DNA of 64,000 bases from an uncultured Bacteroidales bacterium. Lineage in GTDB: Bacteria; Bacteroidota; Bacteroidia; Bacteroidales; VadinHA17. The notes beneath the pieces are model-generated. The model was not told where the DNA came from, ran no database searches, and was given only the letters and a program-made list of their open reading frames with translations. Below are positions 44,850 through 60,541 of this stretch, one piece after another; positions within the stretch are counted from its first letter, which is position 1; every line of letters begins with the position of its first letter. Made by a program: the position numbers and the translations under genes. Location: the NCBI GenBank assembly GCA_963813405.1, contig CAWEYU010000004.1, positions 392,769-456,768 of the forward strand, read 5' to 3'.

Positions 44850-44850
44850 T

Positions 44851-45837
44851 TCAGGTCGTTGCCCTGATCTCTCCGATCATCTTCTTTATCTCTTGCCATT
44901 TTGTATGATCAAGTCTTGCCCCTGGTATTTCAATAACTTTTCCTGAAAGTATGGCACCGTAGAGGCCGCAATTCTCCAGTGAGTCATTCGTGGCAACGCC
45001 ATAAAGAAAGCCCGATGCATAAAGGTCACCGGCACCGGTAGTGTCTCTTGCGTTTACAGGTATGGTCCCAATCTTGATCACCTCTTCGCCTCTTTTCAGC
45101 CACGAACCCTGTGAACCAACTTTTACAACTGCTGTCTCACATAGTTCTGAAAGACGAAAAACGGCTGTTTCGGCATCAAGCCCTGTAAATGCTTTTGCCT
45201 CTTCCTCATTGGCAAAGATAATATCCACATATTTTTCAATAATCTCTTTAAAATCGGCGAGTTTAGCCTCCACAACATTATAGCTTGCAAGGTCAAGTGC
45301 AACCTTCATGCCGTTAGCTTTTGCAATTTTGCATGCAGTTTCAACAAGAGGCTTATTGATAATCAGATATCCTTCCATATAGAGGATATCATATTTTTTA
45401 AAATCTGATGGATTGAGATCCTTTTCAGTCAGTTCTACTGCGGCACCCAGATGAGTGGCAAATGTTCTTTCGGAGTCAGGAGTGATTAATGCAACTGCAG
45501 TACCTGTAGGAGTCAGGCGCCGGTGCAGGAAGGCAGTCACTCCTGCTTTTTTCAGGTCATTTTCAAAAAAATCACCTGTTTCATCCTTCCCGATTGAACC
45601 AATAAAACCGGTAGAAACACCCAGTAATGAGAGACCATGGATAGTATTGGCTGCAGAGCCGCCGGAAGCCATGGTTTTATTAAAACTCCCTGTTACGGTT
45701 TTTATTGATTCCGACTTATTACTATCGACAAGCTGCATGCTGCCTTTTGGAAGAGAGAACTTAAGTAAGATTTGATCGTCATCTAAAATTGTTACAACAT
45801 CGACAAGTGCGTTCCCGATGCCAATAATATTCTTCAT
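44851..45837 (-). CDS. PfkB-family (adenosine/nucleoside) kinase
   Basis: GIGNALVD, GGSAANT, DSERTFATHLGA, DTTGAGDLYASGF; start placed at ATG 45837. Confidence 0.9.
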   Translation of the reverse strand: MKNIIGIGNALVDVVTILDDDQILLKFSLPKGSMQLVDSNKSESIKTVTGSFNKTMASGGSAANTIHGLSLLGVSTGFIGSIGKDETGDFFENDLKKAGVTAFLHRRLTPTGTAVALITPDSERTFATHLGAAVELTEKDLNPSDFKKYDILYMEGYLIINKPLVETACKIAKANGMKVALDLASYNVVEAKLADFKEIIEKYVDIIFANEEEAKAFTGLDAETAVFRLSELCETAVVKVGSQGSWLKRGEEVIKIGTIPVNARDTTGAGDLYASGFLYGVATNDSLENCGLYGAILSGKVIEIPGARLDHTKWQEIKKMIGEIRATT

Positions 45838-45853
45838 CAGCAAAAATTTTCGT

Positions 45854-45892
45854 CAAAGATATTGCTTAATTCAGTAAAAGCCCTTACTTTTG
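45854..45892. promoter_or_regulatory. Divergent Bacteroidota promoters for the kinase (-) and tRNA-Asn (+)
   Basis: TATCTTTG on the minus strand (45854-45861); TTG at 45862 plus TACTTTTG at 45885-45892 on the plus strand. Confidence 0.55.
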
Positions 45893-45926
45893 GCACTCTT
45901 AAAACAAGAAAGTACATTTTTAAAAT

Positions 45927-46003
45927 TCCTCAGTAGCTCAGTTGGTTAGAGCATCTGACTGTTAATCAGAGGGTCGCTGGTTCGAGTCCAGCCTGGGGAG
46001 CCA
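45927..46003 (+). tRNA. tRNA-Asn (GTT)
   Basis: Acceptor TCCTCAG/CTGGGGA, D-arm GCTC..GAGC, anticodon arm TCTGA-CTGTTAA-TCAGA, T-arm GCTGG-TTCGAGT-CCAGC, discriminator G plus encoded CCA. Confidence 0.98.
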
Positions 46004-46007
46004 AAGC

Positions 46008-46044
46008 AGACAAGAGGTCAAAATCGATCTCTTGTCTTTTTTTT
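46008..46044 (+). terminator. Intrinsic terminator after tRNA-Asn
   Basis: AGACAAGAG...CTCTTGTCT followed by a T-run. Confidence 0.75.
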
Positions 46045-46105
46045 ACGACCTTCTGAAATCCACACCAAATATAGGAATAAGAAAAAGTGATTAACAATAA
46101 CTGAG

Positions 46106-46156
46106 GGTTGCAACTTTTAAATTCTTAAAATTGGATTTTTTGTCAGAGTTGCAACC
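46106..46156. repeat. Inverted pair GGTTGCAACT ... AGTTGCAACC just downstream of tRNA-Asn
   Basis: 10-bp perfect inverted repeats 31 bp apart; the same motif heads the downstream repeats. Confidence 0.65.
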
Positions 46157-46305
46157 ATTGGGCTACTTTCGTACTATACTTGAGGTGATTTGCACAAAAT
46201 ACCTGCCAGCCCTCTAACAGTTGCTTCTGGGACGCTTTTATGGGACAATTTCATAAGGTATTACTAAAAGAATTGTTTATTTGCAAAATCATAATCTTGG
46301 TTCAA

Positions 46306-48468
46306 TCAGTTTTTTGGAAGAGGAAGGTTCATTTTCTTACAAATGGCAATGAACCTGGGATTCCCGAACAGGGTATCATAAAAATGACCCGATCTGGCAA
46401 TATATGTCATTATCGGATCATGTAATTCAAATCCCTTTTCAATCCAGTCCATGGCTTTATCAGGTTGATTCGCTATAATGTACCTAACAGCCATTTCAGA
46501 AAAACCAATGTAATTGTTTTCAGCATATTTCTCCAAATGTTTCATTATTTCTTCATATGCTTTAGCAATTCCTGATTCGCTGTAAATTCTCTCTATATCC
46601 TTAAAAGCATCTTCTTCAATTTTAATTGGGAGTGAGTATTTTACCACTCTGATTACTTTGTCGTAATCCTTACTCTTGTATGCGGCTATTTCAAGCATTC
46701 CATTAATATTGATGTCCTCTGGATTAGTGGCCAACCACTCTTCCATGAGAGACAAGCTGGTCTTGAAATCACCTGCTTGCACCAGTGTCCCTATATACAT
46801 AAGCTTAGCAACAGGATTTAACGGATCGAGGCTGATTGCAAGCTCTCTCTGCGCCAATGATTCATCGTCCCTGTCCAGGATCAATAATAACTGTGCATAC
46901 ATCAGCCTGCAGAGGGCATTGTTGGGATTAATAGCCAGAGTCTTTAAGAACTCTTTTTCACTCTTTTCCCAGTTCCATTCCACCAATTGAGCAATCACGG
47001 CATTCTGATAATGAACTTCAGCAAGATCCGGATCCAGTGCCATCGCTTTATTAAGATTCTCGGTGATTTTTGGACCGGCAACAGAAGGTTGTTCCCACCC
47101 CGCTTGCTGTATCCATATCCAGACCTCTGCCAGACCTGCATAGAGAGGTGCCCAGTCAGGATTTTTCTCAATGGCACTGTTCAGATATTCTAGGGCTTTA
47201 TTCAACGATTCCCTCATGGGGTCAGTCAAATATGAGCGGGCCTTCAGATATTCATTATATACTTCAAGATCTGCGGCCGGAACTTTTTCAATAAGCTTTC
47301 TCTCGTCAGGGGATATGACAGCTTTGAGCTCTTTAGCTATTGATTCTGCTATCCGTATTTGGATATTAAAAATATCTTCAACTCCATTGATTTTTTGCTG
47401 GAACGACTCCCCCCAGAGATGTGACTCATGCTTTGCCATGATCAGTTGTACCCTCAGGCGAAATGAACTACCATATTTCTGCCCGCTGCCTTCCACAATA
47501 TAATTCACCCCAAGTTCTCTTGCGATCTCAGGAATTGATTTTGTCTGATTCCGGTACTGTTCAACTGAAGTACGGGAAATAACCCTGAGATCTTTAACCG
47601 TCTGCAGATTGGTAAGTATCTCTTCCATGACACCATCCATGAAGTAGGTGGTTGAATCATTAGGGCTGTCGTTTACGAAAGGTAAAACAGCTATTGATTT
47701 TTCAAGCAGTTCTTTTGGTTTGATTAGTTTTGGAAAGATGAAATACCCGGCCACAATTAATACCAACAATATTAAAGCGCCAATAATGATCTTCGTTCTA
47801 AAGTTTTTCCTTAATGAAGATTTTTCTTCTTTAATTACTAATGAGATCTTTTCCCCCTCCCTGTCTGGATTTTTTAATCCTGTAATAATCTCTTTAACGG
47901 CATTGGCTACCTTGTTGATCTGATTCCGGTAATAAGTTTTATTTAGATTATTATCCGGATGATCTTCATTAGACAAGAGAGGACGGTTCACTCCGGGTTC
48001 CTTGTAAATGAATTCAATTCCTCTTAAGAATCCTCCAAGTTCACTTTCAACAAGCTTCCTGTCTTCTGCATCAAGTTCGTGTATCTGAACGGGAAGTACA
48101 CGATTTGCCACATTGCCACCGGGAAGTTTAATCTTTAAGCCAAACTGATCGTATGATGCCTGTTCAATAAATGCCTTAAACTCATGTTCCCACGCGAATG
48201 ATTTCGGATCGCAATAAGTTCGTGAGATTATTGGAATGAATAAAAGACACTTGAGTTTCACCTTAAGTGATGCATCTACATCATGTGTCTCCAATAGTCC
48301 GTCGTGTGGATTAATATCAAAGTAAACACTGATTTCCTCTTTAAAGGTAGATTCGAGTTCCGTCTTCAGAGCATCAACAAACTCACTAACCCACCTGTCG
48401 CCTTTATTGTCTTTCTGACGGTAGCTGATGAAAATGTCGTAATTATAGCCTTCTAAAATGCTTGACAT
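46306..48468 (-). CDS. TIR - TM - TolB_N-like - TPR protein (paralog 1)
   Basis: YDIFISYRQKD...FIPIISRTYCDPKSFAWEHEF (TIR-like, Glu retained); TM IIIGALILLVLIVAGYFIF; SIAVLPFVN...LRVISRTS...GVNYIVEGS; TPR helices; start aligned to its paralogs (ATG 48468). Confidence 0.8.
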   Translation of the reverse strand: MSSILEGYNYDIFISYRQKDNKGDRWVSEFVDALKTELESTFKEEISVYFDINPHDGLLETHDVDASLKVKLKCLLFIPIISRTYCDPKSFAWEHEFKAFIEQASYDQFGLKIKLPGGNVANRVLPVQIHELDAEDRKLVESELGGFLRGIEFIYKEPGVNRPLLSNEDHPDNNLNKTYYRNQINKVANAVKEIITGLKNPDREGEKISLVIKEEKSSLRKNFRTKIIIGALILLVLIVAGYFIFPKLIKPKELLEKSIAVLPFVNDSPNDSTTYFMDGVMEEILTNLQTVKDLRVISRTSVEQYRNQTKSIPEIARELGVNYIVEGSGQKYGSSFRLRVQLIMAKHESHLWGESFQQKINGVEDIFNIQIRIAESIAKELKAVISPDERKLIEKVPAADLEVYNEYLKARSYLTDPMRESLNKALEYLNSAIEKNPDWAPLYAGLAEVWIWIQQAGWEQPSVAGPKITENLNKAMALDPDLAEVHYQNAVIAQLVEWNWEKSEKEFLKTLAINPNNALCRLMYAQLLLILDRDDESLAQRELAISLDPLNPVAKLMYIGTLVQAGDFKTSLSLMEEWLATNPEDININGMLEIAAYKSKDYDKVIRVVKYSLPIKIEEDAFKDIERIYSESGIAKAYEEIMKHLEKYAENNYIGFSEMAVRYIIANQPDKAMDWIEKGFELHDPIMTYIARSGHFYDTLFGNPRFIAICKKMNLPLPKN

Positions 48469-48513
48469 CAAAGGTCTATTTAATTCATAATCAAAATCAT
48501 AATCTTGGTCCAA

Positions 48514-50679
48514 TCAGTTTTTTGGAAGAGGAAGGTTCATTTTCTTAATAATGTCAATGAACCTTGGATTGCTGAATAAAGGATCAAAGGAACACATCCT
48601 GGTCGTTATATAAGGCATCCCTGGATCGTGTATTTCATATCCCTTTTCAATCCAGTCCATGGCTTTATCAGGTTTATTCGCCATAATGTATCTTCCTGCC
48701 ATTTCTACAGGAGAATAGGGATTATTTTCATCGATTTTCTCCAAATGGATCATTATTTTCTCAAATGCTTTGATAAAACCCTCTTCGTTGAAAATCCTTT
48801 CAATTGCTTTAATATCATCTTCTTTAACGCTAAATATGGAGAGGATATAGCTATAAGCTTTAATTACTTTATTGTATTCTTTACATTGAAAAGCTGCAGA
48901 TAAAATACAATTATTTGCAATAAAGTTCCGCGGATCATCAGCCAATACCTTTTCCATCTGAATCAGAGCATTTTGACAATCACCGAGACATAATAACGCT
49001 GCTGCATATTGTACCTGTAACAAAGGATTCTTTGGATCGAGGTCGATCGCCATGTTGGCCTGCATTAGTGCTTCACCAGGCCGCTGCAGGCTGCTTAATA
49101 ACTGTGCATATATTACCCTTGCGAAGGCATTATTCGGATTAATGGCCAGGGCTTTCAATAACTCCTTTTCACTCTTTTCCCAGTCCCACTCTTGCAAGAA
49201 AGCCATCTCTCCGCTCATAAACCTGGAATCAGAATTATCCGGATCCAGTTCAAGTGCTTTATTCAGGTTTTCAAAGATCTTCGGTCCGGCAACTTGCGGT
49301 GTTTCAAAACCCATTTGAGCGATTGATGCCCAGACCATAGTCAGTCCCGTATAGAGAGGCGCCCAGCCAGGGTCCTTTTCCACAGCATGGTTCAAATATC
49401 CCAAAGCTTTCATCAACGATTCCTTGTCAAGATCCTCCAGAAAGTAAAGACCTTTGAGGTAATTGTCGTAGGTTTCAAAATCAATTGTATGTATTTTCTC
49501 GATAAGTTTTTTCTCATCAGGAGACATAACTGCGCTTAATTCATTAGCAATTGCCTCGGCAAAACCTGACTGGGCTTTAAAATATTCTCTCATGTCAAGG
49601 TTTTCCTGTTCAAACGAGTTCCCCCAAAGATGTCTTTCATTCCTGGCTGCTATTAACTGAACCCTCATCCGTAATGAATTGCCTGATTTCTGGCCGCTCC
49701 CTTCTACAATATAGTTTACGCCTAACTCCTTTGCTATCTCTGAAATTGATTTATCCTGCCCACGAAATTGCTCTGCCGAGGTTCGCCCGAGAACTCGCAA
49801 AGATTTTACAGATTGAAGTTTATTCAGAAGCTCTTCCATTACACCATCCATAAAGTATTGAGTAGAATCCTCCGGGCTATCATTCCTGAAGGGTAGAACA
49901 GCAATAGATTTTTCGATTTCTTTTTTTAAGAAGTTTGTTTTTACTATGACAAAGACGACAGCCAGTACAATTATCAGAGAGAGGGAATATATCAGAACCT
50001 TTTTTGTTTTATTACGGGTTTTTTCTTCAGGAAGTGTTAGTTTAATAACTTCCTTTGGCTCGCTTTCAAATTCCAATGGTTCTCCTTTCAATCCGCTGAT
50101 ATTCTCTTTTATCGCATTGGCAACCTTATTAATCTGATCCCGGTAGAAGGTTTTGTATTGGTTTTTTTCAGGATAATCAGATGGAGTTAATGGTCTGTTT
50201 ACTCCTGCTGACTTATAAATAAAGTCAATACCACGAACTACTCCTCCTAAAACAGATTCACATAGTTTGATGTCAGTGTTCTCTAAATCGTAGATCCTTA
50301 TTGGAAGTACTCTGTTGGCAACATTTCCATTAGGAAGTCTTATTTTCAACCCAAATTGATCATTTGAAGCTTGTTCAACAAATGCTTTAAACTCATTTTC
50401 CCAGGCAAAGGATTTTGGATCACAATAGGTGCGAGAAATGATGGGGATAAAGATAAGGCACTTCAGTTTATCCTTGATTGAGGCATCAACATCATGAGTC
50501 TCAAGAAGCCCATCGTGCGGATTGATGTCAAAATAAACGCTTATTTCTTCTTTGAATGTCGCCTCCAGCTCCTTCTTCAGGTTGTCAACAAATTCTGTTA
50601 CCCAACCGTCATATTTATTGTCTTTCTGACGGTAGCTGATGAAGATATCATATTCGTAACCAGGAATGAGGCTTGACAT
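48514..50679 (-). CDS. TIR - TM - TolB_N-like - TPR protein (paralog 2)
   Basis: Same architecture; SFAWENEF; TM VLIYSLSLIIVLAVVFVIV; ends KKMNLPLPKN like paralog 1. Confidence 0.8.
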   Translation of the reverse strand: MSSLIPGYEYDIFISYRQKDNKYDGWVTEFVDNLKKELEATFKEEISVYFDINPHDGLLETHDVDASIKDKLKCLIFIPIISRTYCDPKSFAWENEFKAFVEQASNDQFGLKIRLPNGNVANRVLPIRIYDLENTDIKLCESVLGGVVRGIDFIYKSAGVNRPLTPSDYPEKNQYKTFYRDQINKVANAIKENISGLKGEPLEFESEPKEVIKLTLPEEKTRNKTKKVLIYSLSLIIVLAVVFVIVKTNFLKKEIEKSIAVLPFRNDSPEDSTQYFMDGVMEELLNKLQSVKSLRVLGRTSAEQFRGQDKSISEIAKELGVNYIVEGSGQKSGNSLRMRVQLIAARNERHLWGNSFEQENLDMREYFKAQSGFAEAIANELSAVMSPDEKKLIEKIHTIDFETYDNYLKGLYFLEDLDKESLMKALGYLNHAVEKDPGWAPLYTGLTMVWASIAQMGFETPQVAGPKIFENLNKALELDPDNSDSRFMSGEMAFLQEWDWEKSEKELLKALAINPNNAFARVIYAQLLSSLQRPGEALMQANMAIDLDPKNPLLQVQYAAALLCLGDCQNALIQMEKVLADDPRNFIANNCILSAAFQCKEYNKVIKAYSYILSIFSVKEDDIKAIERIFNEEGFIKAFEKIMIHLEKIDENNPYSPVEMAGRYIMANKPDKAMDWIEKGYEIHDPGMPYITTRMCSFDPLFSNPRFIDIIKKMNLPLPKN

Positions 50680-50799
50680 TTGAAATGTTTGTCAGATAAA
50701 GTTATGAAAGAGAAAGTTACTATTCAAATATAATAAGTAAGTGATTCATTTTTTGGAATATTGATAATTATCTTCTTTATCATCAAAAGTTACTTTCTC

Positions 50800-50841
50800 T
50801 GGTTGCAACTTTTGTCCGTTTGGGGTCCCGAACGGGACAAA
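50800..50841. repeat. GGTTGCAACTTT motif followed by an imperfect hairpin
   Basis: TGGTTGCAAC then TTTGTCCGTTTGGG-GT-CCCGAACGGGACAAA; GT and GGGG at the same spacing as in the larger repeats. Confidence 0.6.
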
Positions 50842-50920
50842 CTGTTTGCTTCCCTAAAATCCAGTTCAATAAAAATTACAATTTCGAAAACCGCTTTTTA
50901 TCATAAAAAAGTCTTTCATC

Positions 50921-51087
50921 TGGTTGCAACTTTCAGCGGTCAGGGGAGCAGAAAAAAGAGTGAGAGCGAGAGCGAGTATTCTCACTTCTTTTTTTGACTC
51001 ACTGCGTTCGTCGAGCTCACCCCGATAAATCGGGGTTCGGTTCTCGAGACTCACTCCCACACTCACTCTATTGGGGTGGTTGCAACT
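50921..51087 (+). repeat. Conserved intergenic element, copy A (att-like head plus long imperfect hairpin)
   Basis: TGGTTGCAACTTTCAGCGGTCAGGGGAGCAGAAAAAAGAGTGAGAGCGAGAG...inner ACCCCGATAAATCGGGGT...ACTCACTCCCACACTCACTC...TGGTTGCAACT. Confidence 0.8.
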
Positions 51088-51108
51088 ATTAATTTGCCTT
51101 TGTTTCAA

Positions 51109-51135
51109 TAAAAAAGGCCCCGCGATGGAGCCTCT
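51109..51135 (-). terminator. Probable intrinsic terminator of the Gly-rich protein gene
   Basis: Minus strand AGGCTCC-ATCGC-GGGGCCT followed by a T-run. Confidence 0.55.
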
Positions 51136-51164
51136 TGTATCAAAGTATTATTAAGGTCTAAAGA

Positions 51165-51734
51165 TTACTTCTTGTCATAAACCCTTTTGGTGGTAGTTGG
51201 ATCTCCCCCATTAAATCCAGGTCTGGTTGAAGTAATAGTAAGAGTACTGGCGTCAGCAAGTGTCCAGACCTCAGTAATTTTCATTGTCTGATCATTAAAG
51301 GTCCTGGTTGTGACAATCGTTAGAGATTTGCCATCTGCTGAATATGTAGCAACTGATGGCACCTTCATTGGGTCTCCCCCGCCGAAACCAGGAGTAGTGT
51401 TTATACTTTCCTTCCCGTCAAGAGTATATTTCATAGTTGTGGTCACTGGTGTGCCGTCCTGTCCGGTTCTTGTTGTTGCAACAGTAAGAAGGTTGGCTTC
51501 CTGCGTGGCAACAATATTGCCCCCGCCAAAACCTCCACGTCCGCCACCGCCGCCGCCACCACCGGCAGGGGGTTGAGTGCTTTTTGAAGCATTATAGGTC
51601 CAGTTACCGGCGAAATTAGCTTTCCCCTGTGCATTTGTCATTGCAGGCAATAAGAATGCCAGGATAACAGTTAAGGATAATATCCGCAGAATGCCTGTGC
51701 GGGTAAAACCAAAATTTTTTACATTTTTTTCCAT
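51165..51734 (-). CDS. Secreted hypothetical protein with poly-Gly linker (beta-rich, possibly lipocalin-like)
   Basis: Signal peptide ending TNA-Q, NFAGNWTYNASKS, GGGGGGGGRGGFGGG, YTLDGKES; TATCTTTG box on the minus strand at 51777-51784. Confidence 0.7.
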   Translation of the reverse strand: MEKNVKNFGFTRTGILRILSLTVILAFLLPAMTNAQGKANFAGNWTYNASKSTQPPAGGGGGGGGRGGFGGGNIVATQEANLLTVATTRTGQDGTPVTTTMKYTLDGKESINTTPGFGGGDPMKVPSVATYSADGKSLTIVTTRTFNDQTMKITEVWTLADASTLTITSTRPGFNGGDPTTTKRVYDKK

Positions 51735-52082
51735 AATCAATTAATTTAACTTGTTGCTTTTATAAAGAGCGTTTATCAAAGATATTTATTCTATTTCAAA
51801 TTTGGACTCTAGTAAGCCAAAAATATAATAATAGTTCTAAAGTGTTAATTGTAGACCCCACTATCAATCACTGGCGCTGAAAGCGGATGAATCTAAGCCA
51901 CTATCATATTATTGTATAGAAGTGGATGAAGGTTCGCTTGTTCAGGTAGCAAGTGAGGATGGTAACATTTTCGACATGAAGCCACAGTGATGAAGGCAAC
52001 ATCAAATTTTCTTCCTGGTTTTAAACAAGTTAGATTAAATCGAGAGATTTTTGTTCACCTATTCAGCGAAATTTGAAAAAAC

Positions 52083-52180
52083 CAGTTGCAACTTTCAGAA
52101 GTCAGGGGAGCAGAAAAAAGAGTGAGAGTGAGAGCCTGCCTGCCAGCAGGCAGGCGAGAGCGAGCACTCTTACACTCAAC
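52083..52180 (+). repeat. Conserved intergenic element, copy B
   Basis: CAGTTGCAACTTTCAGAAGTCAGGGGAGCAGAAAAAAGAGTGAGAGTGAGAG with inner perfect hairpin GCCTGCCTGC-CA-GCAGGCAGGC (52134-52155). Confidence 0.8.
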
Positions 52181-52233
52181 GCATCAGCTCGCGGGATTCC
52201 ATTACTACAACAATAGGTATTGTTCCATTTTGG

Positions 52234-53493
52234 TTATGCCGCAGGGATATAAATATCAAACTGTGCACCTCTATTTAATTCACTTGTTGCGATGATGATA
52301 CCGTTGTGGTTTTCTACTATTTTTTTTACTATGGCAAGCCCGATCCCCGTTCCTCCGTATAAGTCTTTGCTGTGAAGTTTTTGGAAAACTTCAAAAATAC
52401 GTTCACTAAAATGGGATTCAAAGCCTATGCCGTTGTCTTTGACAGTGATATGGCAATAATTTTTTTCGGATGAAAGCTTTTCGATATTCAAATTTATGCC
52501 CTTTACAATCCTGCTCTTTATTGTAATATGTGATGGTATATCAGGATTTGAAAATTTGAGTGCGTTGCTTATCAGGTTATACATGAGCTGGCGAAACTGA
52601 AAAGTGATGATATTGGCAGAACATAGTTCGGTAGCTTCAATTGTTGCATTCTTTTCCTGAATAGTATCTTTCAGTTCGGTTTTTACTTCTTCAATAATTA
52701 TATTTAGCTCTGTTTTTTCAAACTTATGATCGGTAGTGTTGATGCGGGAGAAGGCAAGTAAATCGTCGATGAGTTGCTGCATTCTTTTTGCTGCTAATTG
52801 CATTCGCTGGAAACTATATTTGCCGTTATCAGATAGATTTTTATCTTCATTTTCAAGTATGATCGATACGAAGGTTTGAATTTTTCGTAATGGCTCCTGC
52901 AAATCGTGACTTGATATATAAGTAAATGCCAATAACTCTTTATTAGCAATGCTTAACTCTGCTGCCCGCTTTTCTTTCTCTTCGTTTTGAAAGGCAAGTT
53001 CTTTATTTGCAATGATTAACTCTGCTGCCCGCTTTTCTTTCTCATCATTTTGAAAGACAAGCTCTTTGTTTGCGATGATTAACTCTGCTGCCCGCTTTTC
53101 TTTCTCATCATTTTGAAAGACAAGTTCTTTGTTTGCGATGATTAGCTCTGCTGCCCGCTTTTCTTTCTCATCATTTTGAAAGACAAGTTCTTTGTTTGCA
53201 ATGATTAGCTCTGCTGCCCGCTTTTCTTTCTCATGATTTTGAAAGACAAGTTCTTTGTTTGCAATGATTAACTCTGCTGCCCGCTTTTCTTTCTCATCGA
53301 CTTGAAAGACAAGTTCTTTGTTGGCAATGCCTAATTCTGCGGCCCGTTTTCCTTTCTCTTCTTTTTGAAACGCAAGTTCTTTGTTAACACTGATTAATTT
53401 TGCTAACAGTTTTTCATTCTCTTCTTTTTGAAGGGCAATTTCTTTGTGAGCAATAATTATCTCATCCTCATCTGATTCTTTTCTTTTAGTCAT
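52234..53493 (-). CDS. Cytoplasmic histidine kinase with N-terminal 21-aa coiled-coil repeats
   Basis: SHDLQEPLRKI H-box, NLISNALKF, VKDNGIGF, IFEVFQKLH, GTGIGLAIVKK; no TM or PAS recognised. Confidence 0.92.
   Translation of the reverse strand: MTKRKESDEDEIIIAHKEIALQKEENEKLLAKLISVNKELAFQKEEKGKRAAELGIANKELVFQVDEKEKRAAELIIANKELVFQNHEKEKRAAELIIANKELVFQNDEKEKRAAELIIANKELVFQNDEKEKRAAELIIANKELVFQNDEKEKRAAELIIANKELAFQNEEKEKRAAELSIANKELLAFTYISSHDLQEPLRKIQTFVSIILENEDKNLSDNGKYSFQRMQLAAKRMQQLIDDLLAFSRINTTDHKFEKTELNIIIEEVKTELKDTIQEKNATIEATELCSANIITFQFRQLMYNLISNALKFSNPDIPSHITIKSRIVKGINLNIEKLSSEKNYCHITVKDNGIGFESHFSERIFEVFQKLHSKDLYGGTGIGLAIVKKIVENHNGIIIATSELNRGAQFDIYIPAA
52935..53430. repeat. 63-bp (21-aa, EKEKRAAELIIANKELVFQND) tandem repeat, 7 clear units plus degenerate ones
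   Basis: RAAEL codons at exact 63-bp spacing between 52957 and 53346; outer boundaries approximate. Confidence 0.92.
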
Positions 53494-53623
53494 ATTTTTT
53501 CCCGATAATGTAGTTTTGTTTTAAAATTGAGGTTTAAAGGGAATTTTGGAATTGCTGTAAATATTTCTTCAGCTTAATTACTTTTTTATCCTGTCAGAGG
53601 CGTGACTAAATAATTACAATGTT

Positions 53624-54070
53624 TCACACAGTGATGACAAACTTTTCTCTTGTCGGTTGTGAAATAGTATCTTGCACTATAGCTACCAGCGATTGTTGAA
53701 TTATTATTTTGAATTGTGAAAAGTCTGAAGGCTTGCGAATGAAATATTGCGCACCGTTTTTGTACAGTAGGTTAACAACTTCCTTTTCAAAGGAGGTTGA
53801 TAAGATGATCACGGGAAGTTCTTTCAGCATTTCATTTTTTTTTATCTCAGATAAACATTCGAAACCGTTTTTTCGGGGCATATTAAGATCGAGGAAAAGG
53901 ATATGAGGAAGTTCGTTTGTTTCATTATTCAGTAGTTGCATGAGTTGTTCTCCATCATAAACGGTCGTAAGTTTGGTGGATAACAGCAATTCCCCCAGTG
54001 CTTCTTTGAAAAAAATGCAATCGTCAATATCGTCATCTGCAAGTAATATATTCAAGTGTTTTAAATTCAT
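53624..54070 (-). CDS. Single-domain response regulator
   Basis: ILLADDD, LFLDLNMPRKNG, ILSTS, FIRKP. Confidence 0.92.
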   Translation of the reverse strand: MNLKHLNILLADDDIDDCIFFKEALGELLLSTKLTTVYDGEQLMQLLNNETNELPHILFLDLNMPRKNGFECLSEIKKNEMLKELPVIILSTSFEKEVVNLLYKNGAQYFIRKPSDFSQFKIIIQQSLVAIVQDTISQPTREKFVITV

Positions 54071-54510
54071 GCGTTAAGGATATATTTTAGCGGGCTGTTT
54101 GAAAATATTTTTTCAGTAGCTATAGGAAGCGCATGATAAATAACCTGTTTGAGTTGCTCAAAATCACCTGGCTTATGAATATAAACATTAGCACCGATCT
54201 TGAAGACAATGCCTATCATGTCTTTCGAGTTTGATGTTGAAAGCAAAACCAGAGTAAGGTCTTTCAGATTTATATTTTGTTTTATCTCTGATAAACATTC
54301 TATGCCGTTCTTGCGGGGCATGCTAATATCCAGAAAAAGAATATCAGGAAGATTTTTGGTATTCTCGAGAAGGTAATTCATGAGTTGTTCTCCGTCATGA
54401 ACAATTGTAAGATGAGTTACAACTAGCAATTCTTCCAATGCCTTTTTAAAAAAAAGGCAATCGTCAATATCATCATCTGCCAGCAATATATTCAGTTGTT
54501 TTAAATTCAT
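54067..54510 (-). CDS. Single-domain response regulator
   Basis: ILLADDD, LFLDISMPRKNG, LLSTS, YIHKP. Confidence 0.92.
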   Translation of the reverse strand: MNLKQLNILLADDDIDDCLFFKKALEELLVVTHLTIVHDGEQLMNYLLENTKNLPDILFLDISMPRKNGIECLSEIKQNINLKDLTLVLLSTSNSKDMIGIVFKIGANVYIHKPGDFEQLKQVIYHALPIATEKIFSNSPLKYILNA

Positions 54511-54568
54511 GCATTTAAGGTATTGCGTAATTGATTGTTTTTAAATCATTCTTGCCGTTTTGTATATG

Positions 54569-55024
54569 TTAATCATAAATTTTCCCTTTGGCCATCAAGT
54601 GAATATTTTTCCCCACCAAGATAATCGTATTGTGAATGACCTGTTTGAGTTGTGCAAAATCCTCAGACTTACGAATGTAATCATACGCACCAGTATTCAG
54701 GAGTATCTTTATAATTTTCTCTTCATAATTCTTGTCCTGTGGGAAAGAGGTTGAAAACATGATCACAAGCAGATCTTTCAACTTTTTATTTTCTTTTATC
54801 TCTGTTAAACATTCGAAACCGTTTTTCCGGGGCATGCTAAGATCGAGAAAAAGAACATCAGGAAGATTTTTGGAATTCTTGAAAAGGTAAGTCATAAGTT
54901 GTTCTCCGTCATGAACAACTGTAAGATGAGTTGGAATGGGTATTCCCTTTAATGCTTTATCAAAGAAAGAACAGTCGTCAGTATCGTCATCTGCAAGCAG
55001 TATATTCAATTGATTTAATTTCAT
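54569..55024 (-). CDS. Single-domain response regulator
   Basis: ILLADDD, LFLDLSMPRKNG, MFSTS, YIRKS. Confidence 0.9.
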   Translation of the reverse strand: MKLNQLNILLADDDTDDCSFFDKALKGIPIPTHLTVVHDGEQLMTYLFKNSKNLPDVLFLDLSMPRKNGFECLTEIKENKKLKDLLVIMFSTSFPQDKNYEEKIIKILLNTGAYDYIRKSEDFAQLKQVIHNTIILVGKNIHLMAKGKIYD

Positions 55025-55510
55025 TTTTTAAATTTTCAAATATTTTTGACAATTAGTAATTAATGGCACTTTGAAGCCTGATTTTTAAACTTGCCGTGTC
55101 ACGAAAATGGACAGATTTTATATTGGACTATCCGTTTTCAGATAAATGGGATTTGTAATCGATAAAAAACTAGCTTTCGCACTGCAAGAAATGCATCTTT
55201 TAATAAAAAAGTGTTACACAATTGTACCCATAACTTACATAATTCACATATTTAGTTCATCTCTGGTCTGTCGGTTTGATTCATGATTTCATTCACGCGG
55301 GTAAGATGTTGATTGCAAAAGCTGTATACCCTGACCACATGCAGCCGCGAATTTTAATACTAAGATATATTACAATATTACTATTTAGAACCTGTTATTT
55401 ATGGTCAAGATTCCCCTGACAAATGTGTTCAAAGTGCCTGGCTTTTATAGTGGTAAATGATTCTTGCTATCTCATTTATAACCTGTATTAATTATCGGAA
55501 GTTTTGTAAC

Positions 55511-55652
55511 TGGTTGCATCTTTCAGTAGTCTGGGGAGCTGAAAAAAGTGTGAGAGTGAGAGTGAGTGTGAAAACACGAACGAACAACTCACTCTTTTTT
55601 CCTCGCTTCGTCCTTCGTAGCTTTAGCGGAGAAGGACTCTCACTCTCACACT
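55511..55652 (+). repeat. Conserved intergenic element, copy C
   Basis: TGGTTGCATCTTTCAGTAGTCTGGGGAGCTGAAAAAAGTGTGAGAGTGAGAG...inner GTCCTTC-GTAGCTTTAGCGGA-GAAGGAC...CTCTCACTCTCACACT; CTGGGGAGC is identical to tRNA-Asn 45993-46001. Confidence 0.8.
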
Positions 55653-55763
55653 ATTTTTATCAAAGGGTTCTGCAGTCTGATAGTCTGAGAGTCAGCAGGG
55701 AAATTGAAATAAATTTGAATTGTATCCTGCACTTTACTAACTTTATCACAATGAACAGCTAAT

Positions 55764-58148
55764 ATGCCAAGCCTCATCCCCGGATACAAATACGACATCT
55801 TCATATCCTATCGCCAAAAAGACAACAAAGGTGATCGCTGGGTTAGTGAGTTCGTCGAAGCACTGAAAACAGAACTTGAATCAACTTTTAAAGAAGAGAT
55901 CATCGTTTATTTTGATATTAATCCTCACAACGGTCTTTTAGAAATACATGATGTTGATGCCTCGCTAAAGGAGAAACTCAAATGCCTCGTCTTTATTCCA
56001 ATTATTTCGCGAACATATTGTGACCCAAAGTCATTTGCCTGGGAGCATGAATTTAAAGAATTTGTTGAACAAGCTTCTAATGATGAGCTTGGTATGAAAG
56101 TAAAACTGCCTGACGGAAATGTCGCCAGCAGGGTTTTGCCGGTTAAGATTCATGACCTCGATCCTGAAGATAAAACTCTTTTAGAAAATGAGTTAGGTGG
56201 TGTACTTCGTAGTATTGAGTTTATATATAAAGAGGCTGGAGTGAATCGTCCTCTGAAGCCAAATGATGATCCGAAAGAAAACCTGAATAAGACCAATTAT
56301 ATAAACCAGATCAATAAGGTTGCAAATGCAGTTAAGGAGATTATTACAGGTCTACACCAGTATGAAGAAAAAAATGAAGAAGCGCCTAAAGAAATTTCTA
56401 AACCAGAATTTGTCCCACAAAAAAAGAACAAAACAAAAATCCTTTTTGGGTCAATTATAGCGTTGGTATTGATAGTTTCAGGCTTGTTATTAATTCCCAA
56501 ATTATTTAAATCAGAAAAACAGATTGAGAAAACTATAGCAGTTTTACCATTTAGAAATGATAGTCGTGATATAGAAAACCAGTATATCATTGATGGGACT
56601 ATGGAGGCTATTCTGGACAACCTGTGCAAAGTTGCTGACCTTACTGTAATATCCCGAACCTCAGTTGAGCAATTCAGAAATACAACCAAACCTATCCCTG
56701 AAATAGCAAAAAAACTAAATGTCAATTATATACTTGAAGGGAGCGGACAGAAATACGGCGACAATATTCGTTTAACTGTCACGTTAATTGATGCTGCAAA
56801 TGACAAACAGATCTGGTCCTCCCCTTATGAAGGTGTAACAGATAATATCTTTAGATTACAAAGCCAGATTTCAGAAGCAATCGCATCCGAATTGAAAGCA
56901 ATAATTTCACCCGAAGAAAAACTTCTGATTGAAAAGGTACCAACTAAAAGCTTGATAGCATATAATTTATTTACTCAGGCCAGGAGCGAACACATGAAAT
57001 TCTGGTCGGACAATAAAAATATAACTGGTCTTAAGAAGGCTTTGATCCTGTATAAACAAGTACTGCAATACGATTCCACATATGCACAGGCTTATTCAGG
57101 CCTTGCCCTGGGGTATCTTAATAAAAGAGCTGTTCAGACTAACCTTAATACGAATTTTTTGGACTCGGTTAAATTTTATGCTGACAAAGCGATAAGTTGC
57201 AATGACAGACTGGATGAAGCTTTTTATGCAAGAGCGATTTATTACGATAGTAAAGGAGATTATGACAAATCCCTGAAGGATTGCAACACAGCCATTGAGA
57301 TTAATCCAAATTATTCTTCGGCATACTTTGCCAGAGGAACATTAAATTTGGTTAAATATTGGGATACCTATAATGCCTTTGAGGATTTAATAAAAGGTAC
57401 TCAACTCGAACACGGTCCGGATCGTCCAGGAAGAATGAGGACTTTAGGAGATCATTTTAAAAATTTTGGTTTTCCCGAAATCAGCAGGTATTATTCTGAA
57501 GAGGCATTTAAACTTGATACTGATACAATACTTTATTTCAATGCAATTGCGGGTTTGGAAGAATTCCAGGGAGATGCCATAGCTGTCGAATTTTACAATA
57601 AAGTTTTAGGAACAGATCCTTCCAACCTGACTGCTTTAATAAGAAGTCTTATTTGCTATGAACGATTAGGTAAGTACGAAGAGGCATATCGATCAGCTAA
57701 CAATATTATTCGGATATATGATAAAACTGGCTTGTCGCCTCAATATAACTGGGAATATATTGGGTATGCTTTTTTGAAAACAGGACACATAAAAGAAGCC
57801 AGATATTATTTTGACAAGCAGATAGACATATGTCAGGGAATACTAAAGTCAGATCCAAATACCGATGAAAGTATTTATCCTCTTATCTGTGTGTATTCTG
57901 CCCTTGGAGAATATAACAAAGGTCTTCAATGGTTAAATACACTTAATGAAGGAATTTTAGAACGTATTAAGAAAGGAAGAGTTATAGCTTCAAAAAATTT
58001 TCAAAATTATCTTAAATATGATCCACTTTTGGAGAATCTCCGCAGTGATTCTATGTTTATAAGAATACAGAAAGATCGGGCAGTAACATACAATATTACA
58101 CACGAGAAAGCTAAGGTCTGGTTAAAGGAGAAGGGTATAATAAAATAA
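55764..58148 (+). CDS. TIR - TM - TolB_N-like - TPR protein (paralog 3)
   Basis: YDIFISYRQKD...SFAWEHEF; TM ILFGSIIALVLIVSGLLLI; TIAVLPFRN...VISRTS...NVNYILEGS; divergent TPR region. Confidence 0.8.
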   Translation: MPSLIPGYKYDIFISYRQKDNKGDRWVSEFVEALKTELESTFKEEIIVYFDINPHNGLLEIHDVDASLKEKLKCLVFIPIISRTYCDPKSFAWEHEFKEFVEQASNDELGMKVKLPDGNVASRVLPVKIHDLDPEDKTLLENELGGVLRSIEFIYKEAGVNRPLKPNDDPKENLNKTNYINQINKVANAVKEIITGLHQYEEKNEEAPKEISKPEFVPQKKNKTKILFGSIIALVLIVSGLLLIPKLFKSEKQIEKTIAVLPFRNDSRDIENQYIIDGTMEAILDNLCKVADLTVISRTSVEQFRNTTKPIPEIAKKLNVNYILEGSGQKYGDNIRLTVTLIDAANDKQIWSSPYEGVTDNIFRLQSQISEAIASELKAIISPEEKLLIEKVPTKSLIAYNLFTQARSEHMKFWSDNKNITGLKKALILYKQVLQYDSTYAQAYSGLALGYLNKRAVQTNLNTNFLDSVKFYADKAISCNDRLDEAFYARAIYYDSKGDYDKSLKDCNTAIEINPNYSSAYFARGTLNLVKYWDTYNAFEDLIKGTQLEHGPDRPGRMRTLGDHFKNFGFPEISRYYSEEAFKLDTDTILYFNAIAGLEEFQGDAIAVEFYNKVLGTDPSNLTALIRSLICYERLGKYEEAYRSANNIIRIYDKTGLSPQYNWEYIGYAFLKTGHIKEARYYFDKQIDICQGILKSDPNTDESIYPLICVYSALGEYNKGLQWLNTLNEGILERIKKGRVIASKNFQNYLKYDPLLENLRSDSMFIRIQKDRAVTYNITHEKAKVWLKEKGIIK

Positions 58149-58247
58149 ATTGAACTAAAAAAGATAGATTTGTTTAATTACTTTTTATGAAGAGAAACCT
58201 CAGTAAAAAATCAGCAACTTCAATGCGGTCAATTTTAGAACAGCCTA

Positions 58248-60188
58248 ATGTGGTCAGATATTTTATATAACAATGACAATCTATCGGTTAATAACGCACT
58301 AGCTGACAGAAAAAAATATAAGAAATTCTTTACTGACACTATTGCAGAAGGACTTTTTAAAGATTTGAGGCGATCGGGTGACACCATTCTGATTTTTGCT
58401 GCTTCAGACAAAGATTTTGAAGATCTCACAAAAGCTGAAAAAAATTTCTGGCTCTCGTATGCTTCTGAGATTCCGGATAAATTCAAAGCAATAAATCTTT
58501 TCATCCGGCCATTCAGGGATTTTTGCAGAACTTGTTTAATAACTGATAATGAGATCGCAACATTTATAAGGTTTGATCTTGAAAAACATTTCATTAATAC
58601 AGAACAGGCAGGTTTAAAAAGCAAGTATCTAACTGATAAGAAATCTTTTCCGCACAGTAATAAAGACATCAATCGTTTCTTCCTGGAAATTAACTACTTA
58701 ATACCGTTGCAGCTAAAAAAGATCGGGTATGAGGTAATCAGGCATGAGGAAGCTGCAGAGATTAATATGCTCATGGTCAAAAAACTGGCAAGAGCAATAC
58801 ATACAGGTTACCTGAATGAAATCAGGAACCAGGACATAAGGGCAGATCATTTTTTTTACACTCCGGAAGATTACCCGAATAAGTATTCATCAGATTTTGA
58901 TGATCTTCCTGAGGAGATTAAAAACTCTAACCTGGATAATGCCGCCCATATTCCAACTAAAATGTTATCAATCGGGTACAAGATCAGACAGGTCGAAAAA
59001 GGGTATAAACCATATGCCCTTCATCTCGATGAAGCTGAAATTGAAACAATGGCAATAGTGGAACATTTGAGATGGAGCTGGGAAAAGAGGTTAAATGGCT
59101 GGATCCTGGGCAGCGTTAAAGATAGTGTAAAGAAAACCCATCCAGACTTAATCCCGTATCAGGAACTGAGTGAATCAGAAAAAGATAAGGACCGTCAGCT
59201 GGTAAAATTAATTCCGTCATTATTACAGGATATTAAGTTCGAAGCTTACCCTGTTTCGCCAAACCGGATAAGTAAATTATCTTACGCGATTAAACCTCAG
59301 AGCAGCATTCATAAAATTTTAGATGAAACCAGGGCATTAAACGATCAGATCAGAAAACTGGTAACACTGACTCCGGAAATTGAAGAAATTGTCGCGATAA
59401 GGAACAAGATGATTGAAGAGGCGATCAATGAGGTTGAGGAGAATTATAATTATGCTCAGCATATTCAGGAAACTTACCTGCCGGATGATCATGCAGTCAG
59501 AGAATGTTTTCCTGACAGTTTTATATTATTCAAGCCAAAAGACATTGTCAGCGGGGATTTCTATTTCTTCAGCAAGCATAGAGATTTAATTATATTTGCC
59601 GCTGCCGATTGCACAGGGCATGGGATCCCGGGGGCACTGCTGAGCACTCTGGGATACGGAATCCTCGACCAGGCTGTAAATGAAATAAATCTTACTGATC
59701 CATCTCTCATTTTACATCATCTTTATTCCAAAATACACAGGTTTCTCCGTAATGATGAGGCGGGGGCAGGACTCTCAGACGATCTGGATATTATCCTCTG
59801 CACTCTGGATATCAGGACCAATTTACTGACATATGCCGGGGTTAAAAATCCATTATACTGTATAACTAATTCCGAACTGGTGGAATACCGGGCAAAGATC
59901 TTCCCTGAAAATTGCATTGAGGGAGCAGACTGCAAGTTTACTTCAGAGAAAATCCAATTAAATCCGGGTGATACAATATACTTATGCTCTGATGGTTATG
60001 CAGATCAGTTTGGCGGAAAAAACCACAAAAAATATCAAACAGGAAAATTGAGAGACTTTTTACTTGGCATTAACGAAATTCCAATTCCTGAGCAATGCGA
60101 CAAATTATACGAGGAGATCACGATGTGGATTGAAGAAAATGACGAGGATCAGACTGATGATATCCTGATTATTGGCATCAGATTATGA
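58248..60188 (+). CDS. RyR-domain SpoIIE/PP2C-family protein phosphatase
   Basis: RyR motifs LARAIH, FDDLPEEIKNSN, MAIVEHLRW...NGW..G..KD..KKTHPDLIPYQELSESEKDKD; PP2C motifs VSGDFY, ADCTGHG, SDGYADQFGG, QTDDI. Confidence 0.82.
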   Translation: MWSDILYNNDNLSVNNALADRKKYKKFFTDTIAEGLFKDLRRSGDTILIFAASDKDFEDLTKAEKNFWLSYASEIPDKFKAINLFIRPFRDFCRTCLITDNEIATFIRFDLEKHFINTEQAGLKSKYLTDKKSFPHSNKDINRFFLEINYLIPLQLKKIGYEVIRHEEAAEINMLMVKKLARAIHTGYLNEIRNQDIRADHFFYTPEDYPNKYSSDFDDLPEEIKNSNLDNAAHIPTKMLSIGYKIRQVEKGYKPYALHLDEAEIETMAIVEHLRWSWEKRLNGWILGSVKDSVKKTHPDLIPYQELSESEKDKDRQLVKLIPSLLQDIKFEAYPVSPNRISKLSYAIKPQSSIHKILDETRALNDQIRKLVTLTPEIEEIVAIRNKMIEEAINEVEENYNYAQHIQETYLPDDHAVRECFPDSFILFKPKDIVSGDFYFFSKHRDLIIFAAADCTGHGIPGALLSTLGYGILDQAVNEINLTDPSLILHHLYSKIHRFLRNDEAGAGLSDDLDIILCTLDIRTNLLTYAGVKNPLYCITNSELVEYRAKIFPENCIEGADCKFTSEKIQLNPGDTIYLCSDGYADQFGGKNHKKYQTGKLRDFLLGINEIPIPEQCDKLYEEITMWIEENDEDQTDDILIIGIRL

Positions 60189-60541
60189 GGAATCCACTGA
60201 TAGCCTGACACTTATACTTTACTTTTTTCCTATACCATTCAGGGAGCGAGCACACTCGTTCTATTTTCCTCCCTTGCTCTCTAAATTCGTCAGACGGAGC
60301 CAACTATGTCGGACGAAGTCCGAAGCTTTCTGTTACTAACCCACAAGTCATGTGCAAATAAATTTTTTTTCTTAGCCGGCTTTTGTTTAAATTTGATAAT
60401 GACCGATTAACCTCCTGATGTCAAGTATCATTCCAGGATACGGATATAACTTCTTCATCTTCAATGTTCAGAAAGATACTAAACCTAATTTCAGTGCCAT
60501 GTTCTAATATAATTATTGAATTTCCCTTTATCCCAATCATT

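Follow-up and report, generated by a model that had tools for sequence, protein, structure and literature searches.

Repeats resembling tRNA 3′ ends as probable att-type sites in a tRNA-Asn-anchored cassette array of an uncultured Bacteroidales bacterium

The stretch of DNA analyzed here (64,000 nt; hereafter the window) belongs to an uncultured Bacteroidales bacterium of the VadinHA17 lineage (assembly GCA_963813405.1, contig CAWEYU010000004.1, positions 392,769 to 456,768) and carries, behind a tRNA-Asn gene, an array of small gene modules separated by copies of a direct repeat. These repeats probably (we put the probability at roughly 0.7) represent att-type sites which derive from tRNA 3′ ends and bound integrase-less cassettes in an additive island anchored at tRNA-Asn. 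Judged from the sequences, four features would be the products of serial integration at tRNA 3′ ends, namely the covariation of the repeat core with the anchoring tRNA, the co-orientation of both, hybrid junctions, and cassette homology extending from site to site; these features are not explained by a regulatory element or by a repetitive extragenic palindromic (REP) sequence. What is new here is a conserved pseudo-tRNA site common to two tRNA hot spots across a Bacteroidales genus.

The repeat unit and its tRNA-Asn anchor

The anchor of the array, tRNA-Asn(GTT), is encoded on the + strand at 45927–46003 and is the single tRNA of the window according to both ARAGORN and Rfam (71.9 bits); at E ≤ 1, tRNA was also the sole Rfam match over 44000–64000. 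Direct reading of the sequence revealed a 28-nt core (GGTTGCAACTTTCAGnnGTCWGGGGAGC) at 50922, 52084, and 55512, corresponding to the repeat copies A (50922–50949, GGTTGCAACTTTCAGCGGTCAGGGGAGC), B (52084–52111, AGTTGCAACTTTCAGAAGTCAGGGGAGC), and C (55512–55539, GGTTGCATCTTTCAGTAGTCTGGGGAGC). All repeat copies are located on the + strand, like tRNA-Asn. A repeat search of the window grouped them into a three-copy direct repeat family (50909–50977; 52071–52139, 77%; 55499–55567, 83%) and returned a second repeat pair (50776–50832 and 50897–50953, 72%). Using blastn within the own genome, A was 94.1% identical to B over 51 nt and 86.2% identical to C over 58 nt. The repeat is, thus, real, and the identities are near the mismatch counts of an earlier note in which it had been described from the letters of the window.

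In the complete assembly (3.54 Mb, 92% complete; designated G000, other G numbers being sampled genomes of the genus, L numbers loci fetched, and C numbers contigs), the degenerate 28-mer was found five times in forward and not once in reverse orientation when up to three mismatches were allowed, and the reversed-pattern control gave no match. Four of the five copies lie inside the window, within 4.8 kb and on one strand of a genome of ∼3.5 Mb, i.e., the head of the repeat is not a genome-wide REP. The fifth, of the same (Asn) type, is located on another contig (C9:1386–1413), behind a gene with PQQ repeats near the contig start, with no adjoining tRNA. The contig of the window (C4) itself ends within a PQQ gene (63448–64000), a 70%-identical paralog of the one on C9. 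The array may, therefore, continue across an assembly gap to C9 and take in beta-lactamase-family, AraC, and PQQ genes; adjacency of the two contig ends is plausible.

The 9 nt preceding the CA end of tRNA-Asn (45993–46001, CTGGGGAGC) comprise the 3′ acceptor strand, the discriminator G, and C74, and it is this segment that the core copies. CWGGGGAGC agrees with it at 9/9 positions in C and at 8/9 in A and B, the same counts as claimed before. The caveat raised there, that a 9-bp match alone is weak, is justified, as the 9-mer CWGGGGAGC occurs 32 times in the genome. Likeness to the tRNA extends into the T-arm (GCTGG TTCGAGT CCAGC CTGGGGAGC in tRNA-Asn; TCTGG TTGCAAC TTTCAGC GGT CAGGGGAGC in the site), and GGTTGCAACTTT would, from its sequence, be a diverged copy of that arm. 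Altogether, the copy of the tRNA end in the sites is short and its left part is diverged.

One complete unit consists of an AT-rich left arm ending in GGTTGCAACTTT, the core, and a right arm that opens with a terminator. In repeat A (50843–50949, delimited by repeat search, blastn, and pattern), the left arm, of ∼80–95 nt, starts from CTTCCCTAAAATCC and precedes the core; it is kept in the relatives G004 and G019 and in metagenome contigs. The right arm of A (50950–51086; fold of −46.5 kcal/mol), of the type termed RA1, ends in GGTTGCAAC at 51078–51086. Repeat B (52084–52185) has the core and an RA1 arm into which a REP-like palindrome, GCCTGCCTGCCAGCAGGCAGGC, is inserted, and repeat C (55512–55660) has a core with exactly CTGGGGAGC, followed by RA1. 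RA1 is composed of an A-run, a GAGAG-rich hairpin, and a T-run, resembling a bidirectional terminator, and its fold is stronger than expected in all three units (z −2.1, −4.5, and −4.5 for A, B, and C, respectively). For the 28-mer, even with its flanks included, folding gave no signal compared with shuffled sequences (z −0.57 and +0.21).

Two further + strand elements had been taken for copies of the head. The "partial copy" at 50800 is indeed related to the repeat; the pattern search assigned it (50801–50828) to a second, tRNA-Leu-type variant (see below), of which it is a degenerate member (GGTTGCAACTTTTGTCCGTTTGGGGTCC) followed by a short hairpin. At the remnant near 60238, a remnant is present (60238–60275), consisting of the 3′ hairpin half of a terminator-like RA1 arm (terminator scan, 60243–60262) without any head; it forms the distal limit of what can be recognized of the array in the window. 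The GAGAG-rich tail, which the earlier note had counted as part of the repeat head, is a dispersed terminator element: the GAGAGT-rich RA1 hairpin is found directly behind tRNA-Gln(CTG) and tRNA-Met(CAT) in G000 (C6:301969–302060 and C9:314200–314285), with many copies in C6:302–334 kb, and also behind tRNA-Phe in G144. RA1 appears to be the usual tRNA terminator of this lineage. The palindrome GCCTGCCTGCCAGCAGGCAGGC (52133–52154 in the window) is likewise dispersed in G000 (C4, C9, C14, C7, C11, and C2), and in relatives, it is inserted in sites between GGTTGCAAC...TCCG and the core (L029:17519, L039:2251, and L039:354).

Directly behind tRNA-Asn, a right-arm element of another type (RA2, 46004–46263, + strand; terminator scan, blastn, and sequence) consists of a short hairpin with a T-run and a conserved stretch with two GTTGCAAC motifs. 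In the window, the terminator hairpin occupies 46008–46037, with GGTTGCAAC at 46106–46114 and GTTGCAACC at 46148–46156. By blastn, RA2 matched more than 40 loci at 70–82%, and it stands behind Leu-type repeats and tRNA-Leu in many relatives.

Site variants and cassettes across the genus

With a 66-nt query, full-length matches (76–91% identical) were obtained from many members of the genus, whereas E values were 0.04 at best in 24 genomes representing other families of the order. The 28-mer pattern was present in 89 of the 151 genus genomes sampled, in 1–7 copies each, clustered on one contig and strand, while the reversed pattern was absent from all 151. As clustered, strand-uniform copies were all that G000 and its 150 relatives contained, the repeat is not scattered regardless of tRNA.

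The sites occur in two variants which have the left part in common and differ in their tRNA-derived ends. Asn-type sites end in C(W)GGGGAGC. The Leu type, GGTTGCAACTTTTGTCCGTTC(G/C)GGGTAC, terminates with the final 9 nt of tRNA-Leu(TAA), TCCGGGTAC; the likeness is longer in some copies, where GTCCGCTCCGGGTAC faces GTCCCGCTCCGGGTAC of tRNA-Leu, one base off, so that up to 15/16 nt agree. The pair of a Leu-type and an Asn-type repeat seen in the window recurs in G004, where the two are 121 bp apart.

Among the fetched loci, which contained 127 unique sites (flanks of at most 10 kb, with many contigs ending therein), an upstream, co-oriented tRNA was present for 50 sites. It was tRNA-Asn for all Asn-type sites (7/7) and tRNA-Leu(TAA) for all Leu-type sites (37/37); the remaining six, with degenerate or chimeric cores, lie behind tRNA-Asn (two) or tRNA-Leu(TAA) (four). 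No other tRNA was nearest to any of the 50 sites. The Asn-type pattern was also found on 37 metagenome contigs, 10 of which contain a tRNA, in each case tRNA-Asn, upstream and co-oriented, and sometimes 165–182 nt away. These figures are counts and not probabilities, since kin are not independent. Because the second core variant copies tRNA-Leu(TAA), and it is this tRNA behind which the Leu-type sites lie, the weak argument from a 9-bp match becomes a strong one, and the proposal that the repeats are att-like and stem from tRNA 3′ ends is borne out. In the G000 assembly, which contains 33 tRNA genes by ARAGORN, tRNA-Leu(TAA), tRNA-Phe, and tRNA-Gly(GCC) are absent; in relatives, these three jointly head the Leu-type arrays, and the corresponding locus of G000 was probably not assembled.

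Junctions of the kind that integration generates were observed in both forms. A tRNA joined to a right arm was seen in L024, L027, L029, and L057, the arm in L027 and L057 being near-identical to that of the next site. The complementary junction, left arm and core joined to the very flank that tRNA-Asn has in the window, is represented by L030:2128 and by many RA2 copies. The unit is, furthermore, conserved at 87% over 178 nt (G004) and at 92% over 102 nt (G019), compared with 70–75% for the neighboring housekeeping genes GFO and PfkB; either selection or recent spread must be at work.

Defining a cassette as the segment between neighboring sites, or from the tRNA to the first site, 95 unique cassettes were obtained, with a median size of 3165 bp (quartiles 1666 and 4884; range 548–13958) and a median of two genes; 34 contain one gene. 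Within these 95 segments, genes are oriented randomly with regard to the site (145 co-oriented and 130 opposite). The designation "signalling cassettes" used in the earlier note fits the window and does not extend to relatives, where the cargo mixes toxin-antitoxin genes (HigB, ParE, HipA, MNT/HepT, and AbiEii) and STAND/conflict genes with metabolic ones. It includes TOTE primase-helicase, Imm5, caspase-like, nSTAND-WD40, MalT-LuxR, and DUF4143 ATPase proteins, two-component systems, and numerous glycoside hydrolases, esterases, and reductases. Cassette content behind tRNA-Asn varies among G000, G004, G011, G012, and G032, with the upstream PfkB and GFO genes being syntenic.

That module boundaries coincide with the repeats, the check proposed in the earlier note, is evident from two cassette families. 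A 1.6-kb cassette encoding a DUF4143 ATPase occurs in L035, L045, and L073 at 86–91% identity in unrelated contexts, and its homology extends from the upstream site to 5–8 nt past the downstream core, the 3-kb flanks being unrelated. A second cassette shows the same breakpoint behavior in L105, L118, and L080. Ends of homology blocks within 200 nt of sites were more frequent overall (12.9% vs 4.9%), a figure that is confounded by redundancy and by the intergenic position of the sites and is not used as evidence. Public sequencing runs covered at most 21% of the sampled words in any run, and the contigs of four runs that were compared are short fragments of relatives, which are uninformative on excision and whose gaps in coverage carry no meaning. 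They contain joints at the repeats (46157→50798, 50823→50957, and 50826→60244), whose sides of only 21–27 nt at ≥88% likeness led us to give them no weight except that they are in no conflict with the model; the last of them, weak and with a side of 27, comes from one contig that bridges the two positions by 26 right-arm-like letters.

The motif GGTTGCAAC recurs ∼100–150 nt past the core in 40 of the 95 cassettes, compared with an expectation of 0.05 per 350 nt, and the sites are intergenic without exception. An interpretation of GGTTGCAAC as a target-site duplication around the cargo is not general, given that it holds for just 40/95 cassettes, a low number mostly due to the degenerate site in RA2. 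Its reading as a sigma-54 or extracytoplasmic function (ECF) promoter was dropped because the orientation is independent of flanking genes, and a solo repeat resembling clustered regularly interspaced short palindromic repeats (CRISPR) was dismissed on account of spacing and context. The papers listed by a literature search on GGTTGCAAC were unrelated.

Candidate integrases and competing explanations

The earlier note had seen no integrase, which agrees with the domain search: PF00589 detected two genes in G000 (on C13 and C14), both for Xer-sized recombinases, and none on the contig of the window. To cover relatives, all open reading frames (ORFs) of at least 80 aa from 103 loci were screened with phmmer, employing 14 tyrosine recombinases of the genus as queries. 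Three loci matched, all with one family of 432 aa, a Bacteroidetes-type tyrosine integrase with the domains Arm-DNA-bind_5, Phage_int_SAM_5, and Phage_integrase. Orthologs at ≥80% identity are intact in seven of the 151 genomes and fragmentary in approximately four more. Wherever this gene and sites share a contig (6/6; G010, G148, G150, G036, G080, and G087), the integrase gene lies upstream of the array, toward the tRNA, and is divergent from it; in G036, tRNA-Leu is succeeded by integrase fragments, the 21-nt copy, RA2, and a site. In every copy read, the gene is succeeded by ∼215 nt with AGGTGCAAA repeats, by 21 nt that copy the tRNA-Leu 3′ end exactly or nearly so, and by RA1 or RA2. The 432-aa unit represents a conventional integrative element with specificity for tRNA-Leu, positioned where the arrays are young, and demonstrates that integrases of this kind operate at the hot spot. 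Because its own site arm, with the AGGTGCAAA repeats, differs from the GGTTGCAAC arm, it is a candidate helper for the sites, not a demonstrated one. Other integrases of G004, G007, and G018 had no adjoining site. A Pfam scan of 26 array loci returned an ISL3 transposase and an IS21-like pair, both outside the arrays.

Two other tyrosine recombinases were considered and rejected. INT2 (515–590 aa) adjoins Asn-type sites in 4/37 metagenome contigs; within the genus, it was near a site or tRNA-Asn in none of 22 loci. There (L053, L054, and L240–L259), it has 510–590 aa and occurs about once per genome, at 51–68% identity, in a neighborhood that is not conserved and often near contig ends. INT3 (∼300 aa) stands beside a site in L200, and 0 of 14 genus loci have one. 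With up to 11 copies per genome (8 on G119:C1 and 11 in G128), it behaves like an insertion element unrelated to the sites.

The most probable origin of the array would then be serial integration at the tRNA 3′ end by a tyrosine integrase. Each insertion would displace older elements outward and leave behind the order of element arm, core, and former downstream flank. The integrase genes would have been lost from the cassettes, or never have been on them, and the cassettes, with a median of two genes and their own promoters, might later have been gained, lost, and swapped between arrays by recombination at the sites. As both variants have the same diverged left part, GGTTGCAACTTT, the sites are shown to be descendants of one element-borne arm that met both tRNAs, and not independent tRNA decays; chimeric cores, which combine an Asn-type left part with a Leu-type end or the reverse (G001, G032, and G095), point in the same direction. 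The crossover would fall within the last 6–7 nt of the core, because the core mismatches that are tolerated would harm the acceptor stem if it took place to their left. The anatomy of the sites, their tRNA specificity, their conservation across the genus, the breakpoints of cassettes, and the lack of integrases in cis are direct results; which enzyme acts, where exactly strands cross over, and whether the sites are active today are matters of inference, as is the recombinase acting in trans that was proposed earlier. Because G000 has no cognate integrase, the array of the window is probably static unless the enzyme is supplied in trans.

A bolder extension, which we regard as doubtful, is that the arrays form a working integron-like platform. 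The tRNA 3′ end (or its exact 21-nt copy next to the 432-aa integrase) would be the primary site and the 28-nt pseudo-tRNA the secondary, cassette-borne site, and a Bacteroidetes-type tyrosine integrase confined to a few cells or species would insert, excise, and reshuffle cassettes lacking an integrase across the tRNA-Asn and tRNA-Leu arrays of the population. If this were true, the shuffled one- to two-gene cassettes would include toxin-antitoxin, STAND, and TIR-like conflict genes.

Several observations weigh against an origin of the repeats as att-type sites. For 77 of the 127 sites, no tRNA was present within the fetched DNA, which is partly due to the 10-kb flanks and to contig ends, and in G018, G094, G010, and G148, there was none in 17–19 kb upstream. 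In the window, it is RA2 that follows tRNA-Asn. Most copies have one core mismatch to the tRNA. Chimeric cores would imply more than one crossover position, and homologous or illegitimate exchange would account for this pattern no less than a site-specific cut at a fixed position. No integrase was found in the 26 array loci of relatives (Pfam, 281/364 ORFs), and none is flanked by a GGTTGCAAC-type site of its own; intact copies of the 432-aa integrase occur in 7/151 genomes compared with 89/151 for the sites, and neither INT2 nor INT3 is associated with sites in the genus (0/22 and 0/14). Circular or excised forms were not seen in the material at hand, short metagenome contigs.

Part of this evidence would be accommodated if the repeats were fossil scars, that is, dead att remnants whose later shuffling results from homologous recombination between units of 100–250 bp, with no recombinase acting now. 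The lack of a cognate integrase in 26 arrays, and the fact that phmmer found only the 432-aa family, in three of 103 loci, are what such scars predict; chimeric cores and variable right arms suggest several crossover positions, and the right arms belong to a generic class of terminators found behind other tRNAs as well. For dead remnants, however, independent decay is expected, yet identical 28-mers occur in many species, and the unit is conserved at 87–92% as compared with 70–75% for housekeeping genes. Homologous exchange would also have to account for a right-hand breakpoint that lies no more than 5–8 nt from the core end in two cassette families with three loci each. We, therefore, consider fossil scars unlikely as an explanation of the arrays.

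Still less can be said for a cis-regulatory element or insulator, in which the GTTGCAAC palindrome would be an operator and the tail a bidirectional terminator, both jointly shielding adjacent accessory transcription units from one another, and the likeness to tRNA would be incidental. It would account for right arms that fold strongly (A-run, hairpin, and T-run; z −2.1 to −4.5), for sites that are intergenic in every case, and for GGTTGCAAC at ∼100–150 nt past the core in far more cassettes than expected (40/95 vs 0.05 per 350 nt). It is very improbable nonetheless, since the core covaries with the anchoring tRNA (7/7 and 37/37), the orientation tracks the tRNA and not the flanking genes (145 vs 130), the 28-mer neither folds significantly (z −0.6 and +0.2) nor matches Rfam, and just 1–7 copies exist per genome, all within arrays. 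An ordinary dispersed repeat of the REP or miniature inverted-repeat transposable element (MITE) type, clustered here by chance, is the least probable explanation. Dispersal in G000, as expected of such a repeat, is seen for the GAGAGT-rich tail and for the GCCTGCCTGCCAGCAGGCAGGC palindrome; the head, in contrast, has five copies in 3.5 Mb, four of which lie within 4.8 kb on one strand, and is devoid of terminal inverted repeats. Only 40/95 cassettes show a duplication of GGTTGCAAC at their flanks, and scans of G000 and 150 relatives returned nothing but clustered, strand-uniform copies.

Known systems and the cargo of the window

Tycheposons and the tRNA-seeded islands of Prochlorococcus are described as integrating at tRNA genes and being flanked by partial tRNAs, with later arrivals displacing older ones; degenerate remnants and extra partial tRNAs are scattered in these islands, and integrase-bearing elements are far rarer than the islands (10.1101/2020.12.28.424599). 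Likewise, an intact, co-oriented tRNA marks one end here (50/50 sites with a tRNA, and 10/10 metagenome contigs), direct repeats copy the tRNA 3′ end, and the cargo varies with breakpoints at the repeats. An integrase was found neither in the window or on its contig nor in the 26 arrays of relatives, and only in a minority of genomes do Leu arrays have the 432-aa integrase at their head. The separators here are one conserved, diverged 28-nt consensus (the pseudo T-arm GGTTGCAACTTT plus the 9-nt core) that is used at two tRNA targets genus-wide, and the modules, known from their sequence, are small (median 3.2 kb) and integrase-free in the arrays examined, in a Bacteroidales lineage.

Integrase-less segments bounded by att sites are also known from streptococci, where cis-mobilizable elements (CIMEs) accrete in tandem with integrative and conjugative or mobilizable elements (ICEs and IMEs) at one tRNA, and where a related integrase could mobilize them in trans; CIMEs are few, large, and clearly ICE-derived. 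The cassettes described here are equally att-bounded and without a recombinase of their own, whereas they form modules of one or two genes with up to seven sites per genome, and no parent element sharing their site arm turned up. Taken together, the array is most likely a product of tycheposon-like serial integration with CIME-like cassettes, and no integron.

Integrons and clusters of attC sites lacking integron integrases (CALINs) are ordered arrays whose small cassettes each terminate with a conserved secondary site, and most such arrays are integrase-less. In integrons, an IntI-type integrase adjoins attI, the attC sites are imperfect palindromes that form hairpins, and the cassettes are mostly promoterless and share the orientation of the array. 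The candidate integrase resembles theirs in that, where present, it stands at the array head and is divergently transcribed. In the strict sense, the term "integron-like" used in the earlier note does not apply, given that there is no IntI-type integrase, the 28-mer has no attC-like fold, and gene orientation is random (145 vs 130). The 432-aa integrase reaches 30 bits on the integron/XerA model, whose cut-off is 220, remains far below the cut-off for XerC/D as well, and has the Arm-DNA-bind_5/SAM_5 architecture; the cassettes have their own terminators and random gene orientation, and the anchor is a tRNA.

NBU1-type elements of Bacteroides integrate in the 3′ end of tRNA-Leu by means of a Bacteroidetes-type tyrosine integrase and a short common core. 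Target, integrase type, and short core are alike in the arrays described here; NBU1 itself, 10 kb in size, is one element that encodes its own integrase and mobilization functions, and arrays of integrase-less cassettes are not known for it. Islands of Dehalococcoides form tandem stacks that contain repeats of the ssrA 3′ end, and each has its own recombinase. Integration of these islands is site-specific at ssrA, the gene for transfer-messenger RNA (tmRNA) (PMC3146451). The anchor there is a tmRNA; here, it is a tRNA. The dif and pdif sites are 28 bp in length, with XerC and XerD half-sites around a 6-bp spacer, and are recombined by the XerC/D of the host. The core described here also has 28 nt, and G000 encodes two Xer-sized recombinases.

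Integrase-less, repeat-punctuated tRNA islands occur in several streamlined or uncultured lineages. The sites described here, which over half of the species sampled in this genus of soil and wetland Bacteroidales possess, offer an unusually clean handle on how the small modules of such islands move: one 28-nt site, two tRNA-matched variants, breakpoints at the level of cassettes, and a candidate integrase at the head. If active, they would constitute a second, independently evolved route to gene-cassette arrays, based on tRNA-derived instead of attC sites, and a route by which conflict and signaling genes circulate in Bacteroidales. If fossil, they would still illustrate how accessory genes accrete at tRNA hot spots and why the assembly of metagenome-assembled genomes breaks at repeat-rich arrays.

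At tRNA-Asn, relatives contain a further small unit. A gene for a GIY-YIG nuclease of 98 aa is located directly behind tRNA-Asn or an Asn-type site (L023:3909–4205, L031:7653–7982, L192, L205, and L215), and 3′ of it lies a decayed 3′ part of tRNA-Asn, in which a hairpin takes the place of the T-arm or the anticodon stem. The unit resembles a mini-element of the homing type that targets tRNA-Asn.

Three of the four modules of the window are antisense to the repeats. Cassette 1 (46306–50679, − strand) encodes two paralogs with a TIR-like N-terminus and TPR repeats recognized by Pfam (46306–48513 and 48514–50679); relatives of these proteins are encoded within the tRNA-Leu array of G009 (L034). 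The label "TIR" given to them in the earlier note is weakly supported, with E values of 0.013–0.14 for Pfam TIR_2 being below the cut-off and 23/30 atlas matches lying in TIR clusters. Cassette 2 (51165–51740, − strand) encodes a protein of 191 aa for which profile searches found no family match. Cassette 3 (52234–55024, − strand) consists of a histidine kinase gene (52234–53493; HisKA/HATPase_c) and three genes for single-domain receivers (53624–54070, 54067–54510, and 54569–55024; Response_reg). Cassette 4 (55764–60188, + strand) encodes another TIR-like/TPR protein (55764–58148) and a RyR-domain SpoIIE/PP2C phosphatase (58248–60188; Pfam), which had a SiaA-like NCBIfam match below the cut-off. 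PADLOC gave nothing above noise for eight proteins of the window. In the 5′ half of the histidine kinase gene, eight tandem units of 63 bp (52811–53503; 60–95% identical) generate a 21-residue repeat in the sensor part. Finally, a fragment of 66 nt on the + strand (60418–60483), detected as an inverted repeat of 50614–50679 (76%), is similar to the 5′ end of the TIR-like genes and overlaps the start of the beta-lactamase-family gene; it is probably the remnant of a lost fourth TIR-like gene.

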